NCBI RefSeq assembly: GCF_048403405.1
Contig: NZ_CP183129.1
DNA from: Escherichia coli
GTDB taxonomy: Bacteria; Pseudomonadota; Gammaproteobacteria; Enterobacterales; Enterobacteriaceae
Strand: one strand, 5' to 3'
DNA length: 64,000 bases
Notes under the pieces: generated by a model
What the model was told of the DNA's origin: nothing
What the model saw: only the letters and a program-made list of their open reading frames with translations
Databases searched by the model: none
Translations under genes and position numbers: made by a program
In this document: piece by piece, positions 5,069 through 63,472 of the stretch
How positions within the stretch are numbered: the stretch's first letter is position 1
Layout: each line of letters begins with the position of its first letter

Positions 5069-5764
5069 ATGCTGAAGCGTTTCTTTATTACCGGTACAGA
5101 CACTTCTGTAGGGAAAACGGTGGTTTCCCGCGCATTGCTACAAGCGTTAGCCTCCCAGGGAAAAACGGTTGCGGGATATAAACCCGTAGCGAAGGGGAGC
5201 AAAGAGACACCCGAAGGGCTGCGTAATAAAGATGCCCTGGTGTTGCAGAGTGTTTCAACCATCGAACTGCCTTATGAAGCAGTGAATCCTATCGCGTTAA
5301 GCGAAGAAGAAAGTAGCGTGGCGCACAGTTGCCCAATCAATTACACCCTCATTTCAAACGGCCTGGCAAACCTGACCGATAAAGTCGATCATGTGGTGGT
5401 AGAAGGGACTGGCGGCTGGCGCAGTCTGATGAATGATTTGCGTCCGCTCTCTGAATGGGTGGTGCAGGAACAACTGCCGGTGTTGATGGTTGTCGGTATT
5501 CAGGAAGGTTGCATTAACCATGCACTGCTAACAGCTCAGGCGATCGCCAACGACGGGCTACCGCTCATTGGCTGGGTGGCTAACCGAATCAACCCAGGAC
5601 TTGCGCATTATGCGGAAATCATTGATGTGCTCGGTAAAAAACTTCCGGCACCGCTCATTGGTGAACTGCCTTATCTGCCGCGCGCCGAACAGCGTGAACT
5701 GGGGCAATACATCCGCTTAGCTATGCTTCGCAGTGTGCTGGCGGTAGATAGAGTCACGGTGTAA
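5069..5764 (+). CDS. ynfK: dethiobiotin synthetase paralog (BioD-like ATPase)
   Basis: P-loop [12 protein letters not shown] near the N-terminus; 231 aa from the MLKRFF start; located between mlc and clcB. Confidence 0.85.
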
Positions 5765-6973
5765 CGTCCGCGAAATTACCGACGCAATTACGCAGGCAAT
5801 CAATAAACCGGGGAGTAGCTGATACTCCCCGGTCATTTCACATATCATCAACGTCGACATAATCGGCGCGTGCGTGGTTGCCGCCAACAGTGTCGCCATC
5901 CCGGTCAATCCGAGTAAAAGCGTAATTTCTTCGCCATCAGGGAACCATAATCCCAGGCTACGACCATACAACATGCCAATGGCAAGACCGATAAATAGCG
6001 TCGGTGTAAAGACACCACCGGGCGCGCCAGAACCACTACTCGCCAGCACGGCAAACAGTTTACAGAGGAAGATCCCGGCAATGATCATTAACAGTGGCGG
6101 AGCGGTTAAAAAGGATTGTACGGTGCTATAGCCGTTGCCCCACACTGCAGGTGTGAACAGGGAAAGCAGACCCACGATCAACCCGCCCAGTGCCAGTTGC
6201 CAGGGCGGCGCAAGCTTGAGACTTACAAATTCACGATGACAGGCGTTCATCAACGTTAACAACAGTGGTCCGCACAGACCTGCCAGCACACCTGTACTGA
6301 TAATCAGCGCATAGTCACGAGCCTGAACCGTCACTGAGAGTTGTACACTGTAGAGTAACGCGTCGCTATGATTAATCAGATTGCTAACCAGCAATGCCAC
6401 GACGGCGGAAATAATCACCGGGCCGAGAGAGGCCAACATCATAGTGCCAAACAGCACTTCGGCTATAAATAAACTGCCAGCAAGCGGGGCGCGATAGGCC
6501 GCAGCCATTCCCGCCGCAGCTCCACAGGCGATCCATAATTTCCACTCCTGGCGTGGCGTAAAACGTTGGGCAAAACAGGAGGCGGCAAGGGCAGCTAAAA
6601 GAATCATCGCACCTTCGCGACCAATTGCACTGCCGCTGGTTACTACCAGCAGAGAGGCAAGGGATTTAACCAGGCTTGCTGCGTAATCAAACTGCCCATC
6701 GGTTTGCAACGCTTCCATGTAATCGGTCGGCGCATGAGGGCGTTGCTGGGTAAATTTCTGCCAGCCCATCAGCAACAAACCCGCCGCCAGTCCGCCGAGC
6801 GCCGGAGTTAGCAGCCGTCGCCAGGGGGAAAGATTTGTCGCTGCATTGACCAGACTGCCCGAGTCATTATTGAGGAACAACCACTCCAGTAGCAGCATTG
6901 CATGACGAAACCCGGCAACGGCAAAGGCCGCAAGAATACCGACGACTGTTGCGATAAGCAGACGGCGGAACAT
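5717..6973 (-). CDS. clcB: ClC-family voltage-gated chloride channel
   Basis: Polytopic membrane protein with ClC selectivity motifs (GSAIGREGA, GxFxP-type GVFTPT); 418 aa from the [12 protein letters not shown] start. Confidence 0.88.
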
Positions 6974-35971: not shown

Positions 35972-36999
<1,028 letters not shown>

Positions 37000-37362
37000 A
37001 TTAATATTAAATCGGATTATTTTTAGCGCTGAATGTGAAATTTAAATAAAAAGGACTCTTCCATGAGTCAAAATCCTTGAAATCTTAAGGGTAAGATAAA
37101 AGGTCATTAGACAGAATGACACGTTTTATTAATAAATAAAGCTATTGTTTCATTCGTGTGTTTTTCTTTACAAAAGTAATCCTTGCTATGGTTGGTTAAT
37201 CATGCGTTAATGGTGTTCTGGTTTGTTACAAAATTATCTGAAGCAGTCATTGTTATAATTTTATTATTTGTACCTCTTGAGATTTCCTTGTTGGTTTTTC
37301 TCTCTGATATTTTTTTTCGGACCATTCTGCCCAAGGGCTAACTTCTTCAAAAGGTAATAATG

Positions 37363-54398: not shown

Positions 54399-57850
<3,452 letters not shown>

Positions 57851-58571: not shown

Positions 58572-58581
58572 TGGAGTGGAT

Positions 58582-60987
58582 ATGGCAGCAGTAAAAATCT
58601 CAGGTGTGCTGAAAGATGGTGCGGGAAAACCAATACAGAACTGCACTATTCAACTGAAGGCAAAGCGTAACAGCACCACGGTACTGGTGAACACGGTGGC
58701 CTCTGAAAATCCGGATGAAGCCGGGCGTTACAGCATGGATGTTGAGTATGGCCAGTACAGCGTTATCCTGCTTGTTGAAGGTTTTCCGCCTTCACATGCC
58801 GGAACCATTACCGTCTATGAAGGTTCCAGACCAGGTACGCTGAATGATTTTCTCGGTGCCATGACGGAAGATGATGTCATGCCGGAGGCATTGCGTCGTT
58901 TTGAGGAAATGGTGGAAGAAGCGGCACGCAACGCCGAAGCCGCCTCTCAGAGCGCAGCGGCGGCAAAGAAATCCGAAACTGCAGCGGCATCATCAAAGAA
59001 CGCGGCGAAAACCTCAGAAACGAATGCAGCTAATAGTGCACAGGCGGCAGCGACCTCAAAGACTGCATCGGCAAACTCCGCGACAGCAGCCAAAAAATCA
59101 GAAACCAACGCGAAAAATAGCGAGACAGCCGCAAAGACGAGCGAAACCAACGCAAAGTCCAGCCAGACGGCAGCGAAAACCAGCGAAACGAATGCCAAAG
59201 CCAGTGAAACTGCGGCAAAAAACAGCCAGGTTGCAGCAGCCCAAAGCGAGAGCGCGGCAGCCGGTTCTGCGACTTCAGCAGCTGGATCAGCAACTGCTGC
59301 GGCTAACAGCCAGAAAGCTGCGAAGACGAGTGAAACTAACGCAAAGTCCAGCCAGACGGCAGCGAAGACCAGCGAAACGAATGCCAAAGCCAGTGAAACT
59401 GCGGCGAAAAGCAGTCAGGATGCAGCGGCCCAAAGCGAGAGTGCCGCAGCCAGTTCTGCAAGCGCGGCGGCTGCTTCTGCCACTGCATCAGCTAACAGTC
59501 AAAAAGCAGCAAAAACCAGTGAAACCAACGCAAAGGCGAGCGAGACTGCGGCGGCGAACTCGGCGCAAGCATCGGCAGCAAGCCAGACAGCAGCTAAAGC
59601 AAGTGAAGACGCAGCCAGAGAGTATGCAAGCCAGGCAGCGGAGCCGTATAAACAAGTTTTGCAGCCGTTGCCCGATGTGTGGATACCGTTTAATGATTCA
59701 CTGGATATGATTACGGGCTTTTCGCCATCATATAAAAAAATTGTTATTGGCGACGATGAAATAACAATGCCTGGCGACAAGATTGTAAAGTTTAAACGCG
59801 CATCGAAAGCAACTTACATTAATAAATCTGGTGTGCTGACAGAGGCTGCCATTGACGAGCCACGATTTGAACGTGATGGCCTGCTTATTGAGGGGCAAAG
59901 AACTAACCTGCTAATCAATTCAACAAATCCGACTAAATGGAACAAGTCGTCAAATATGATCTTAAGTGCATCAGGTGTAGATGATTTCGGATTCCAGTAC
60001 GCAAAATTTACATTAAAACCAGAAATGGTAGGGCAAATTTCAGCGATTAACATAGTAACCGTTTCCGGCAGTAAAGGTTTTGATGTAACAGGCGGAGAAA
60101 AGTATGTAACCATATCATGCAGGGTGCAAAGTGGCACTCCAAATTTAAGATGCCGATTACGATTTGAAAACTATGATGGTTCTACCTACACATTCTTAGG
60201 TGACGCTTACTTAAATACGACAGATTTATCTATTGATAAGACGGGTGGTGCCGCTAATCGCATTACTGCAAGGGCTGTTAAAGATGAAGCAAGCAAATGG
60301 ATCTTTTTTGAGGCGACAATTAAGGCACTTGATACAGAAAATATGATAGGTGGAATGGTTCAGTATGCCCCGGCAAAAGGAGTGGGCACTGGCGCGGATG
60401 ATTATATTTATATTGCGACCCCTCAAGTTGAAGGTGGGGCGTGCGCTTCATCGTTTATTATAACAGGCGCATCCCCTGTAACACGCGCCAGCGATATTGT
60501 AACGGTCCCCATTTCTCTAAATTGGTGCAATCCCGCTATTAGTTCATTAGCAGAAGTTAATACCAATTGGGATGAATCGCCAAACAAAGAAGGTAGCGCA
60601 CGTATTCTTAATATTTCCACTACGGGAGATACAACTGAAATTGCAGATGAAAGTTATATGTATTTGGGGTATACATCTTTGGGAGCACGCGCAATCATTA
60701 CAAATGGTAAAGGCACTAAAATAGAATATAAAAGCGTTATAGAACGACCAGAGAGAAAAAGCATTATCGGCTTTAGATTCACAGAAAGTCGAGAATTGTG
60801 TGTTGTGGTTAACGGTAATATTGGTGCTAAGGTAGTTTCTCCTTATAAAAAACACAAATATACAGGAGGCTTCATTAATATTGGTGGTCAATCATCATCC
60901 GGCAACCGTCACCTATTTGGACACGTTCGAAATCTGCGTATTTGGCACAAGGCATTGACTGATGCTCAGATGGGGGAGTCAATCTAA
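58582..60987 (+). CDS. side tail fibre protein (lambda Stf-like N-terminus, Ala/Ser/Thr-rich repeat shaft, divergent AT-rich C-terminal receptor-binding region)
   Basis: N-terminus MAAVKISGVLKDGAGKPIQNCTIQLKAKRNSTT...; repeat shaft; C-terminal ~430 aa from an AT-rich segment ending ...GHVRNLRIWHKALTDAQMGESI (lectin/LamG-like ending). Confidence 0.85.
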   Translation: MAAVKISGVLKDGAGKPIQNCTIQLKAKRNSTTVLVNTVASENPDEAGRYSMDVEYGQYSVILLVEGFPPSHAGTITVYEGSRPGTLNDFLGAMTEDDVMPEALRRFEEMVEEAARNAEAASQSAAAAKKSETAAASSKNAAKTSETNAANSAQAAATSKTASANSATAAKKSETNAKNSETAAKTSETNAKSSQTAAKTSETNAKASETAAKNSQVAAAQSESAAAGSATSAAGSATAAANSQKAAKTSETNAKSSQTAAKTSETNAKASETAAKSSQDAAAQSESAAASSASAAAASATASANSQKAAKTSETNAKASETAAANSAQASAASQTAAKASEDAAREYASQAAEPYKQVLQPLPDVWIPFNDSLDMITGFSPSYKKIVIGDDEITMPGDKIVKFKRASKATYINKSGVLTEAAIDEPRFERDGLLIEGQRTNLLINSTNPTKWNKSSNMILSASGVDDFGFQYAKFTLKPEMVGQISAINIVTVSGSKGFDVTGGEKYVTISCRVQSGTPNLRCRLRFENYDGSTYTFLGDAYLNTTDLSIDKTGGAANRITARAVKDEASKWIFFEATIKALDTENMIGGMVQYAPAKGVGTGADDYIYIATPQVEGGACASSFIITGASPVTRASDIVTVPISLNWCNPAISSLAEVNTNWDESPNKEGSARILNISTTGDTTEIADESYMYLGYTSLGARAIITNGKGTKIEYKSVIERPERKSIIGFRFTESRELCVVVNGNIGAKVVSPYKKHKYTGGFINIGGQSSSGNRHLFGHVRNLRIWHKALTDAQMGESI
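59141..59518 (+). repeat. tandem direct repeat, 2 x 189 bp (63-aa unit), within the tail-fibre shaft region
   Basis: 59141-59329 and 59330-59518 are nearly identical (GAAAC-AACGCAAAGTCCAGCCAGACGGCAGCGAA-ACCAGCGAAACGAATGCCAAAGCCAGTGAAACTGCGGC...); a partial third copy follows. Confidence 0.8.
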
Positions 60988-61268
60988 TGAAAGATTTAAC
61001 ACTCAAATTTGCCGACAGGGCCGACTTTTCGGCCTTTATGGGAAGTATTGGCTATTATAATGACGAGTCGATGCAGGATGATATTCTGATTGATGTGATA
61101 GGTAACGTGTACAAAGAAACCGGAGAGCTGACTGAAGATGGCGAACCGGTATGTGTTAAGGAAGATGGATATTTTGTAAACGTGCGCATCATTAAGGATA
61201 CGCAAATATCGTCATTATTCGATGAATACGTGGTTGCTGTTGAGCATCAACTTCGTGGCTGGATGTGA
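60987..61268 (+). CDS. hypothetical protein (tail-fibre assembly chaperone position)
   Basis: 93-aa ORF overlapping the stf stop by 1 nt (TAATG); AT-rich. Confidence 0.45.
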   Translation: MKDLTLKFADRADFSAFMGSIGYYNDESMQDDILIDVIGNVYKETGELTEDGEPVCVKEDGYFVNVRIIKDTQISSLFDEYVVAVEHQLRGWM

Positions 61269-61277
61269 GGAAGAAAA

Positions 61278-62318
61278 ATGGCTACATCGACAGTAATTCC
61301 TGATGACATCAAAACGCTAAAATCCGACGTTAGCAAATTAAAAAACGATCAAGGAAGCTACGCAACAAAATTATATGTAGACAGCAAAGATGAAATCGTT
61401 GGTGACTGGTCTGCTTCATGGTATCAGCAGGTATTGCCAACTAGCGGAGCTATATTTGGGAGAAAACTCCGCTCAACTCACAGGACGGCAGGTGTTGAGG
61501 ATGCGTATTGCGAACTATACCTCAAAAAATGGATAGACAGTCCAGGTAACGCAATGGCGCGCCTTAACCTGAACGATAACGGGACAAACATTTGCTGGGA
61601 CTTTACCAACCTTTATGGCGGTACGATGATTTTTCCCGGTGACAGCGGATACCTCAAAATGGGTAACTGCCTTATGTCATACAGCAAGCGTGGAAGTAAC
61701 GCGCTTATTAAATTTGATTACACCGACACATTACAGATCAAATATGCCAATCATGGGTCAACCATGACATTAAACACACAGGGAACCGCTTATGCTGGTG
61801 TTACTGCTCAATTGTGGGGCAACTCCAGCCGTCCTGTTGTTTATGAAGTCGGTGTTGATGGTGGCGCTTATATGTTCTATGCGCAAAAAAATACCGATAA
61901 CACCTATATGTTAAGCGTTAATGGTGCATGTCATGCCACCGCATTTAACCAGCATTCCGACCGGGATCTGAAAGACAACATTCAGGTGATCGATAATGCA
62001 ACCGACCGCATCCGTAAAATGAACGGCTATACATACACGCTTAAAGAAAACGGTATGCCCTATGCTGGTGTCATTGCACAGGAAGCTCTGGAAGCAATCC
62101 CAGAAGTTGTAGGTTCCGCAATGAAATATCAGGACGGCGCAAGCGGATCGGAAGGTGAAGAAGGTGAACGTTATTACACAGTAGATTATTCTGGTGTTAC
62201 TGGCTTGCTTGTTCAGGTAGCCAGAGAGTCAGACGACAGAATAACAGCACTGGAAGAAGAAAACGCAGAATTAAGACAAAGATTATCTGCAATTGAGGCG
62301 GCGCTTGCGTCTAAATAA
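61278..62318 (+). CDS. second tail fibre / tail spike protein with C-terminal intramolecular chaperone (peptidase S74-like) domain
   Basis: 346 aa; C-terminus ...SDRDLKDNIQVIDNATDRIRKMNGYTYTLKEN...GVIAQEALEAIPEVV... plus a terminal coiled coil, typical of the auto-cleaving chaperone domain of phage fibres. Confidence 0.7.
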   Translation: MATSTVIPDDIKTLKSDVSKLKNDQGSYATKLYVDSKDEIVGDWSASWYQQVLPTSGAIFGRKLRSTHRTAGVEDAYCELYLKKWIDSPGNAMARLNLNDNGTNICWDFTNLYGGTMIFPGDSGYLKMGNCLMSYSKRGSNALIKFDYTDTLQIKYANHGSTMTLNTQGTAYAGVTAQLWGNSSRPVVYEVGVDGGAYMFYAQKNTDNTYMLSVNGACHATAFNQHSDRDLKDNIQVIDNATDRIRKMNGYTYTLKENGMPYAGVIAQEALEAIPEVVGSAMKYQDGASGSEGEEGERYYTVDYSGVTGLLVQVARESDDRITALEEENAELRQRLSAIEAALASK

Positions 62319-62324
62319 TATCAA

Positions 62325-62345
62325 GGGGCCGAGCGCCCCGTTTTA
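62325..62345 (+). terminator. intrinsic terminator after the second fibre gene
   Basis: GGGGCCGAGCGCCCCG followed by TTTTATT. Confidence 0.6.
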
Positions 62346-62354
62346 TTGGGTAGG

Positions 62355-62654
62355 ATGAAAATGGATATAACACCTTTCCTTCATGCGCTTTGTGCTGTGG
62401 CTGCGCAGCTACTGGTTGGTCTTTTTACCGGGAACTGGGCTTACGGGGCGATAGCCGGTTGTACGTTCTTCATTGCGCGTGAACACACCCAGGCGGAATA
62501 TCGCTGGATTGAAATGTTTGGGCATGGCAAGAGGATTAACATGCCGTGGTGGGGCGGTTTTGATCCGCGCGTGTGGGATGTGGCAAGCCTGATGGATTTT
62601 GCTGTGCCGGTGGTGGCGTGTCTGCTGGTCTGGCTGTTGGTTAATCGTGGGTGA
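62355..62654 (+). CDS. hypothetical small membrane protein
   Basis: About 100 aa with two hydrophobic helices (LHALCAVAAQLLVGLF, FAVPVVACLLVWLLV). Confidence 0.5.
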   Translation: MKMDITPFLHALCAVAAQLLVGLFTGNWAYGAIAGCTFFIAREHTQAEYRWIEMFGHGKRINMPWWGGFDPRVWDVASLMDFAVPVVACLLVWLLVNRG

Positions 62655-62881
62655 AAAAAGGTGAGCTGTATATGCAACGGAGGAAGAAACCCCGTTGCTG
62701 GAAGCCTGGAAAAAGTATCGGGTGTTGCTGAACCGTGTTGATACGTCAACTGCACAGGATATTGAATGGCCAGCACTGCCGTAGGGTAAAACATATAAAT
62801 TCTATAATTAGATGTATCTTTCCATTTACGGCAAGGAAGGGGGCTTGGAAGACGTAAAGCATCTCACACCGAGATTATTTT

Positions 62882-63472
62882 TTATATGTCAGGTGTCTGA
62901 AGTTTTGCTTTGGCTCTTAAAATGGTTTGCCGCGAGGTTTTGAATTCCCGGGCAATGGCACTTATACTTACACCTGACTTAATTCGTTCGAATACCACCT
63001 GTTTCTGTTCTTCATTTAACACAGGTGGTCGACCAAAACGTTTCCCTGCGCCCCGGGCTCTTACTATCCCGGAATGAGTGCGTTCAAGTAAAAGGTCTCG
63101 TTCAAATTCAGCGACTGCTGAAATTACTTGCATCATCATTTTTCCTGTTGGACTGGTCAGGTCAATGCCCCCCAATGCTAAGCAATGCACTCTGATACCT
63201 GTTTCGGTCAGTTGTTCCACTGTTTTCCTGATATCCATTGCATTACAACCAAGGCGATCCAGTTTTGTCACAATCAATTGATCACCACATTTCAGGCGAG
63301 CAAGCAACCGGTTAAAACCAGGACGCTCACTGGTTGCTGCTGAGCCGCTAATGTGTTCTTCGATTATTTGCTGAGGTTTGATTTTAAAACCTGCACTTTC
63401 GATTTCCCGGCGTTGATTTTCGGTGGTCTGATCCAGCGTTGATATCCGACAGTAAGCAAAAATTCGAGACAT
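62882..63472 (-). CDS. serine recombinase (DNA invertase/resolvase family)
   Basis: 196 aa; N-terminal catalytic motif YCRISTLDQ; C-terminal HTH; adjacent to the tail-fibre genes. Confidence 0.85.

Follow-up and report, generated by a model that had tools for sequence, protein, structure and literature searches.

What stands at the end of a lambda-type side tail fibre gene when the usual assembly gene is missing behind it, and does such a fibre carry one receptor-binding module or two? The question is raised by the gene stf and its followers, orf93 and orf346, in a 64,000-nucleotide (nt) stretch of Escherichia coli contig NZ_CP183129.1 (assembly GCF_048403405.1), called the window below. We consider it probable that a mobile, portable three-gene receptor-binding cassette replaced the distal third of a lambdoid stf, its end, together with most of the tail fibre assembly gene tfa, giving Stf two exchangeable receptor-binding modules.

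The mosaic stf gene (58576..60987; 803 amino acids (aa), matched over its full length by phrog_1419 'tail protein'), the small partner gene orf93 (60987..61268; phrog_1361) and orf346 (61278..62318; phrog_4563), encoding a second fibre with a predicted C-terminal intramolecular chaperone, are open reading frames (ORFs) of the plus strand, as are all genes and domains below unless the minus strand is named. The Stf product ends in ...NLRIWHKALTDAQMGESI. The stf stop codon overlaps the orf93 start in TAATG, a gap of 9 nt separates orf93 from orf346, which has a GAGGAAG Shine-Dalgarno sequence ahead of it, and a G+C-rich intrinsic-terminator-like hairpin, GGGGCCGAGCGCCCC, followed by a T-run (62325..62347), closes the fibre operon. 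The three genes are one tight operon-like unit with a terminator after orf346.

We detected a sharp change of base composition inside stf. The 5' part of the gene (1.07 kb) has a G+C fraction (GC) of 0.547 and the 3' part (1.34 kb) one of 0.410, with 0.418 in orf93 and 0.445 in orf346. Between the 400-nt blocks on either side of 59,641-59,651 the GC differs by 0.18, and just one step in the window is larger. Low GC by itself is unremarkable, and we rejected it as sufficient proof of foreign origin, since 13% of all 1-kb segments of the window are equally AT-rich (GC of 0.43 or less). The stf step is meaningful because it coincides with a homology breakpoint. The left recombination junction (59641..59662) is marked both by this step (0.55 to 0.41) and by the point where similarity to the cassette of non-lambdoid phages sets in. 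On its 5' side, 1.08 kb of stf are 86-98% identical at the nucleotide level to many lambdoid phages with other fibre ends, for instance mEp460, which has a classical tfa. Similarity to the virulent Nonagvirus vB_EcoS_ESCO3 starts at 59,662 with 89-91% nucleotide identity, and from this position on the sequence is also common to the lambdoid phages Tritos, 2G7b, HannyBb and PhiR63_1. Within the ESCO3-like block the conserved stretches are 59,662-59,907 and 60,879-62,254, and the part between them (59,908-60,878; Stf aa ~445-768) is too divergent for blastn against the ESCO3-like relatives.

The right recombination junction is a remnant of the 3' end of tfa (62673..62784), consisting of the last 35 codons and the stop codon. 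The remnant peptide matches the tail-fibre-assembly PHROGs 105/188/136 (E 1e-11 to 1e-14), and in Turner, PhiR42_1, mEp460_ev081 and 2H10, whose tfa is intact, the final ~110 nt of this gene and the DNA that follows it align with 62,673-62,880 at 98-99% identity. A cognate Tfa (Caudo_TAP) gene was not found downstream of stf, only these 35 codons, and the scar therefore shows that the cassette took the place of the former 3' part of stf and of most of tfa. The AT-rich block stops at the terminator hairpin (62,325-62,339), and the whole replaced segment extends beyond it, to ~62,672. By sequence comparison the locus is thus a real mosaic, in which the end of stf was replaced by a widely shared three-gene cassette.

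The same trio in the same order, a large fibre with a laminin G (LamG)-type end, a protein of 91-93 aa and a fibre with a C-terminal S74 domain, was found in phages with unrelated tails. The large fibres end in the consensus ...GGQ..G.RHLFGH(V/I)RN(F/L)R(I/V)W(H/F)K.LTD, and the second fibres start with MxTxTxIPxDIxxLK. The hosts of the trio are lambdoid phages (Tritos and relatives), Nonagvirus ESCO3, Seuratvirus VogelGryff, T1-like contigs, where the fibre starts with MAIYRQGQASMDAQGY, and T5-like genomes with LtfC upstream, including Tequintavirus IrisVonRoten (bas32_0022-0024). In every host the N-terminus of the large fibre is lineage-specific and the end is common. Compared with the window proteins, the large fibre is 42-57% identical (shaft to end) and the small protein 38-55%, and in T1-like and T5-like metagenomic contigs the second fibre shares ~40% with orf346; at the upper end, cassette proteins reach 92-99.7% identity in unrelated phage lineages.

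Of the phage collection, 181 records were found to encode the small protein and 203 the LamG-type end, with a nearly equal taxon breakdown, and both are directly adjacent in every comparable phage record, including the rV5-like myoviruses. The latter (~136 kb; among them MiataMamis, JeffSchatz and APECc02) have the LamG end followed by a shorter relative of the small protein (aa 1-66 matched). The same genes are carried by the 'Campylobacter phage' records C14, C2, C12 and A12a, which look like rV5-like coliphage genomes. Each cassette gene has a full-length PHROG (1419, 1361 and 4563), the orf346 cluster has more than 2000 member sequences and a T5-like homologue has been modelled, all of which marks the locus as a common module. 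Nor is the cassette new, being an ordinary member of a module known from many coliphages.

These results bear on the claims of an earlier note, made from the letters of the window. The three ORFs and the quoted stf C-terminus are exactly as given there, the abrupt passage from GC-rich to AT-rich sequence near 59650 corresponds to the detected step, and the base composition is not uniform, as it had to be for the proposal to hold. Its statement that a classical Tfa chaperone is missing agrees with the 35-codon remnant, and its suggestion of horizontal acquisition is strengthened by the finding of the same cassette in unrelated lineages. The span proposed there (59640-62318) has the correct left edge and stops short on the right, where the AT-rich block and the replaced segment both run further. 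The note does not mention the GTA head-spike-fibre domain of Stf, the tfa remnant, the conserved joint between the fibre parts or the wide occurrence of the module, all described here.

As a separate observation, the sharpest GC step of the window lies at ~36,900-37,000 (0.205 between flanking 400-nt blocks) and exceeds the stf step; it is probably another mosaic junction, in the prophage early or lysis region.

The hybrid Stf retains the lambdoid N-terminal anchor and the Ala-rich shaft. The gene order is J-lom-stf and the prophage tail fibre N-terminal domain is present at aa 5-134 (58588..58977; Pfam PF08400, E 6e-67), which identifies a lambda-type Stf; judged by this match, the domain is the lineage-specific attachment to the lambdoid tail. 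The repeat shaft, rich in Ala, Ser, Thr, Lys and Glu (aa ~110-355; 58903..59640; direct repeat families D1-D3), is presumed to be a coiled coil, and its DNA has a 21-nt periodicity, a 189-nt higher-order repeat and a strong AT skew. The foreign module begins with a conserved proximal part, QPLPDVWIPFNDSLDMITGF... (aa 363-444; 59662..59907), recognized by its identity to ESCO3 and Tritos (89-97% at the nucleotide level), after which the next ~970 nt diverge. This part is 73-100% identical in aa sequence over the 80 IMG/VR loci described below, and it is common to many of the 2812 relatives that were collected for Stf aa 360-803, 43 of which were aligned.

The end of Stf is predicted to be formed by two domains. 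The first, at aa 437-638 (59884..60489), is a beta-sandwich resembling the head spike fibre of a gene transfer agent (GTA), with a score of 61.2 bits for NCBIfam NF048003 (curated cutoff 36); the homology to RcGTA Rcc01080 covers Stf aa ~407-648 (NF048003, E 1.8e-16; PDB 6tb9, E 5e-5). Identity among Stf alleles is just 31-70% at aa 437-638, presumably the variable, receptor-binding part. The second is a Laminin_G_3 / ConA-like lectin domain at aa ~650-803 (60523..60984) with the conserved end RHLFGHVRNLRIWHKALTDAQ. The Pfam Laminin_G_3 match of Stf itself (aa 741-798) is weak, with E 0.0027, and 13 of the 43 aligned homologues match at 1e-3 or better (best 1.9e-11). The AlphaFold 2 (AF2) monomer model of aa 360-803 is confident (pLDDT 88 in the predicted local distance difference test, predicted template-modelling score (pTM) 0.86), and the structural neighbours of the tip are carbohydrate-binding modules, so that profile match and fold both point to a jelly-roll lectin domain of the Laminin_G_3 / ConA-like type. 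Each Stf chain therefore ends, according to profiles and model, in two beta-sandwich domains, GTA-head-spike-fibre-like and LamG/lectin, which would most likely bind surface polysaccharide (O-antigen, lipopolysaccharide core or capsule).

The orf346 product would be a second, short trimeric fibre. It contains the Peptidase_S74 core at aa 227-278 (61956..62111; Pfam PF13884, E 1.5e-13), starting with the Ser-Lys dyad motif SDRDLK at 227-232 (S227 codon 61956-61958, K232 codon 61971-61973). Residues S227, D228, R229, L231 and K232 are at least 90% conserved among 27 orf346 homologues, and SDRDLK aligns with SDRRIK of the intramolecular chaperone (IMC) of Salmonella phage S16 gp37 (6f45). The family profile matches this IMC with E 6e-8 and MYRF with E 0.045, and also a T4 gp34 repeat with E 1e-7 at aa ~171-224. 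We suggest that the S74 domain folds the trimer and then self-cleaves after Ser227, which would leave a 227-aa mature protein of ~25 kDa and release 119 aa. The secondary structure of the orf346 model includes a helix near the N-terminus (aa 9-27), a middle rich in beta structure and, at the C-terminus, a long helix. Both structural suggestions of the earlier note, a lectin/LamG-type Stf end and an S74-type chaperone domain in the 346-aa protein, are in agreement with these profile matches, with the confident model of the Stf tip and with the S227/K232 dyad.

Conservation within the 346-aa family is unevenly distributed, with a variable region at aa 31-105 (39-55% conservation) and a conserved one at aa 106-330; aa 106-226, adjoining the cleavage site, show 73-95%. 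The variable region (61,368-61,592 of the window) is the proximal beta-rich part. Since the variability is found at aa 31-105 and not beside the cleavage site, the specificity determinant of orf346 may be a lateral domain and not the distal tip.

An alternative second-fibre allele of ~234 aa shares the N-terminal motif of orf346 and has a longer coiled coil and almost no tip domain. Its end is S74-like with an SSIRYK dyad at aa 116, and its body matches the C-terminus of 1385-aa fibres (phrog_3299). This allele is found at 5292-5996 of the IMG/VR locus L011, in L028, L035 and L053 and in 28 further IMG/VR loci.

How would the second fibre be joined to the first? The first 16 residues of orf346, MATSTVIPDDIKTLKS (61278..61325), form a conserved N-terminal motif that recurs in unrelated fibres and is the proposed docking peptide. 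BLAST similarity of orf346 to IrisVonRoten Gp24 (574 aa) and VogelGryff gp24 (388 aa) is limited to the first ~16 aa, the motif being MVTKTVIPTDITKLK in IrisVonRoten, ..KTITNIPKDITNLK in VogelGryff and MATSTVIPDDIKTLK in orf346; it was also found in the loci L004, L006 and L007 and in the 234-aa allele, on bodies that are otherwise unrelated. For comparison of the neighbourhood, 80 IMG/VR loci were chosen with an orf93 88-99% identical to that of the window. In 77 of the 77 loci that extend past orf93, an ORF beginning MA(T/I)STVIP starts 13 nt after the last orf93 codon, and these ORFs are the two unrelated alleles of ~346 and ~234 aa. The Stf tips of the same loci form at least 11 clusters at 90% identity, 6 of which hold both second-fibre alleles, and in L011 Stf aa 363-803 are identical to those of the window, yet the 234-aa allele lies downstream. 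This distribution indicates that Stf tip and second fibre reassort.

From the short N-terminus kept on unrelated second fibres, the constant neighbours and the reassortment, we infer docking on the Stf tip or orf93. The peptide MATSTVIPDDIKTLK and the short coiled coil of orf346 would dock on the co-transferred Stf end or on orf93, and the side fibre would then bear two independent, separately exchangeable receptor-binding modules, possibly with dual specificity. A broader proposal, that a universal plug-and-socket joint is formed by the ~92-aa protein, the 16-residue MxTxTxIPxDIxxLK peptide and the final ~35 residues of the LamG-ended fibre, is put forward tentatively, and we hold it to be rather doubtful. 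If true, unrelated distal fibres (346-aa, 234-aa and the T-shaped 574-aa) would be swappable onto proximal fibres, five or more lineages of temperate and virulent phages would make use of the joint, and perhaps rV5-like myoviruses as well, and the 92-aa protein, instead of being a chaperone, would represent a new class of structural adaptor for fibres.

The same motif bears on whether orf346 is an independent fibre attached directly to the tail tip or baseplate, and not to Stf or orf93, which we consider very improbable. That orf346 is encoded separately, from a start of its own, and has a trimerising coiled coil would suit such a fibre, and several independently attached fibres occur in many phages. 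The motif, however, occurs in lambdoid, T1-like, T5-like and Queuovirinae phages with unrelated tail tips, and the N-terminus of the upstream fibre varies by lineage, so that no partner is common to all except the co-transferred fibre end together with the 92-aa protein. Cryo-electron microscopy likewise revealed no site on DT57C at which its second fibre is attached separately (PMC10713586).

The role of orf93 is the sole notable biological question of the locus, the remainder being expected phage mosaicism. The protein is a member of phrog_1361 (E 1e-44), an unnamed family, and gave no match in NCBIfam, Pfam, PDB (by profile) or PADLOC. It is always located directly 3' of a LamG-type fibre end. 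In Lambda_2E9-type phages the LamG-ended Stf and the 92-aa protein are kept without a second fibre, therefore orf93 is tied to the LamG-ended fibre and not to the second fibre. The Lambda_2E9 locus (L010, 1983-4585) also has an orf102 homologue, and the manganese-transporter genes sitABCD lie just downstream. The gene neighbourhood suggests that orf93 is an obligate partner of the LamG-type fibre end; translationally coupled to stf, it would act as an assembly factor or a structural adaptor.

The first of these two roles would make orf93 a non-structural Tfa-like chaperone for the LamG-ended Stf, with orf346 docking directly on Stf or without orf93, a real possibility to which we give somewhat less than even weight. 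Its place in the tfa position, its translational coupling to stf, its small size and acidic character, as in many fibre chaperones, and its presence with the LamG-type end even in Lambda_2E9 would all be in line with this. On the other hand, orf93 is unlike any Tfa/Caudo_TAP family or solved structure, the Stf tip, modelled confidently as a monomer (pTM 0.86), seems to consist of self-folding globular domains for which maybe no dedicated chaperone is needed, and the depositors of IrisVonRoten label the orf93 homologue 'tail fiber protein'.

Several points weigh against the replacement of the fibre end by a working module with two receptor-binding parts. The docking of orf346 on Stf/orf93 rests on a sequence pattern, and the 77 loci are not 77 independent observations because the 80 loci are close relatives. 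Members of PHROGs 3299 and 6578 are single long fibres with the same distal parts in line, therefore the arrangement could be end-to-end and not branched. From the Lambda_2E9 arrangement it follows that the role of orf93 is independent of orf346 and that the second fibre is dispensable, and orf93 may be a chaperone rather than an adaptor. The AF2 monomer model of orf346 is poor (pLDDT 58) and was used for secondary structure only, and a Foldseek search with it found nothing significant, the best hit being T4 gp34 with E 0.03. A poor monomer model is expected for an interdigitated trimer. Finally, J has a 1-nt deletion near 57,475 (57,470-57,480), and the fibre apparatus may therefore never be assembled in the window prophage.

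The deletion splits J into two frames (54411..57632 and 57569..57850), with the C-terminal receptor-binding part out of frame; the sequence is TTTCCCCGG-GACT against TTTCCCCCGTGACT in E. coli Ecol_316, which is 97% identical overall. Either the prophage is defective or there is a sequencing error. This raises the alternative that the locus is an inert relic in a defective prophage, orf346 being perhaps even what is left of the distal portion of an older single-chain fibre. Besides the lesion in J relative to its intact homologue, the tfa remnant testifies to an earlier rearrangement, the same distal parts also occur in single-chain fibres (PHROGs 6578 and 3299), and several related loci have a truncated orf346 with lengths of 90-323. 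We judge the relic unlikely, as stf, orf93 and orf346 are all intact in the window, the deposited phage Tritos encodes a protein 99.7% identical to orf346, the orf346 cluster holds more than 2000 full-length sequences, the gene has a Shine-Dalgarno sequence and a start codon of its own and an N-terminus conserved in several lineages, and the J frameshift is in a homopolymer-like run, possibly a sequencing error.

Two further genes lie beyond the fibre operon. The small hydrophobic protein orf102 (62346..62654; phrog_1443), probably of 97 aa from the ATG at 62361, has a GC of 0.54 versus 0.43 for the cassette and is 95% identical to orf97 of Lambda_2E9, which follows the fibre genes there. No Pfam or PADLOC match was obtained for orf102/97, and no known defence family was matched by the small proteins of the locus in PADLOC. 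The orf102 gene, conserved in lambdoid phages, is a separate moron-like module of lambdoid context, outside the transferable cassette, and may be a lysogenic-conversion or exclusion moron.

The second is a Pin/Hin-type serine DNA invertase gene on the minus strand (62882..63472; phrog_125, E 7e-69; annotated PinR in Tritos). Such a gene 230 bp downstream of the tfa remnant, likewise in Tritos, could mean that Pin switches the fibre ends, as in Mu G, P1 C and e14 P, the cassette being one orientation of an invertible segment. We give this hardly any credence: no significant inverted repeats were found in 57.5-64 kb (best 22 nt at 73%), there is no gix/hix-type core near the fibre genes, and no oppositely oriented fibre or tfa copies were detected. 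With neither inverted crossover sites nor inverted fibre/tfa copies found, an invertible fibre segment was rejected, and the invertase appears to be an orphan that does not act on the fibre genes.

Which O-antigen or capsule types a lambdoid phage can pass depends on the side tail fibres, and these so shape which strains are lysogenised. The locus clearly exemplifies a portable receptor-binding cassette common to temperate and virulent coliphages, with exact junctions and a tfa scar. The conserved joint of fibre end, orf93 and N-terminal motif, with two binding modules that reassort independently, could be a practical handle for host-range engineering and for the prediction of specificity from sequence.

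Among known systems, lambda Stf-Tfa shares with the window the N-terminal domain, the place after J-lom and the accessory adsorption role, and tfa survives here as the remnant. The distal ~440 aa of the window Stf are unrelated to it, there is no functional Tfa, and the tip is composed of predicted lectin-type globular domains plus a second fibre. The putative glycan binding of the Stf end has indirect support: O-antigen or core sugars are the targets of the lambda and Gifsy-1 side fibres, capsular polysaccharide is bound by the RcGTA head spike fibre (PMC10218006), and the structural neighbours are, as said, carbohydrate-binding modules. A domain homologous to RcGTA Rcc01080 (PDB 6TB9; PMC7296036) was found in Stf aa ~407-648; there the protein is located on the capsid vertices of a gene transfer agent, whereas in Stf the domain is fused to the fibre end with LamG after it. 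With the endosialidase-type chaperones (K1F endoNF, T5 pb1, S16 gp37, MYRF) orf346 shares the Pfam match, the Ser-x4-Lys dyad, the C-terminal position and the terminal helix; it differs by a very short passenger (~227 aa) and by having no enzymatic domain, and its cleavage is predicted.

The L-shaped lateral fibre LtfA/LtfB of DT57C and DT571/2 offers an analogy, being a siphovirus two-protein lateral fibre in which the second, anchorless protein is carried on the first, as may be the case here (PMC4728585, PMC10713586). S74 autocleaving chaperone domains are a further common feature, present there on both LtfA and LtfB, and in both systems the fibres would be dispensable on rough hosts (PMC4728585, PMC10713586). 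For the branched DT57C fibre two O-antigen specificities were shown genetically (PMC4728585). We rejected membership in the LtfA/LtfB family: the LtfB N-terminus, MSRPLMPKSG... (phiEco32 gp15-like type), is unrelated and lacks the motif, LtfA resembles Stf in the Ala-rich shaft only and ends in S74, not LamG, and ltfA and ltfB have no 92-aa gene between them. The unrelated LtfB N-terminus and the shaft-only similarity of LtfA therefore make DT57C a functional analogue only.

The nearest described case is IrisVonRoten (Bas32), whose trio Gp22-24 is homologous and syntenic to stf-orf93-orf346. It differs in its T5 Ltf/LtfC anchor versus the lambdoid PF08400 anchor of the window and in its T-shaped Gp24 of 574 aa versus 346 aa, the two bodies being without BLAST similarity; the window phage, in addition, is temperate, and the cassette displaced tfa. 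Stf aa 133-803 are 45% identical to Gp22, including the RHLFGH(V/I)RNFRIWHK end, orf93 is 38% identical to Gp23, and orf346 and Gp24 share the M(A/V)T(S/K)TVIP.DI..LK motif and the C-terminal IMC class. In the second BASEL paper Gp22 was modelled with AlphaFold-Multimer as the proximal fibre carrying Gp24, and its C-terminal 'galectin-like' domain was proposed as an extra receptor-binding domain (bioRxiv 10.1101/2024.09.12.612763).

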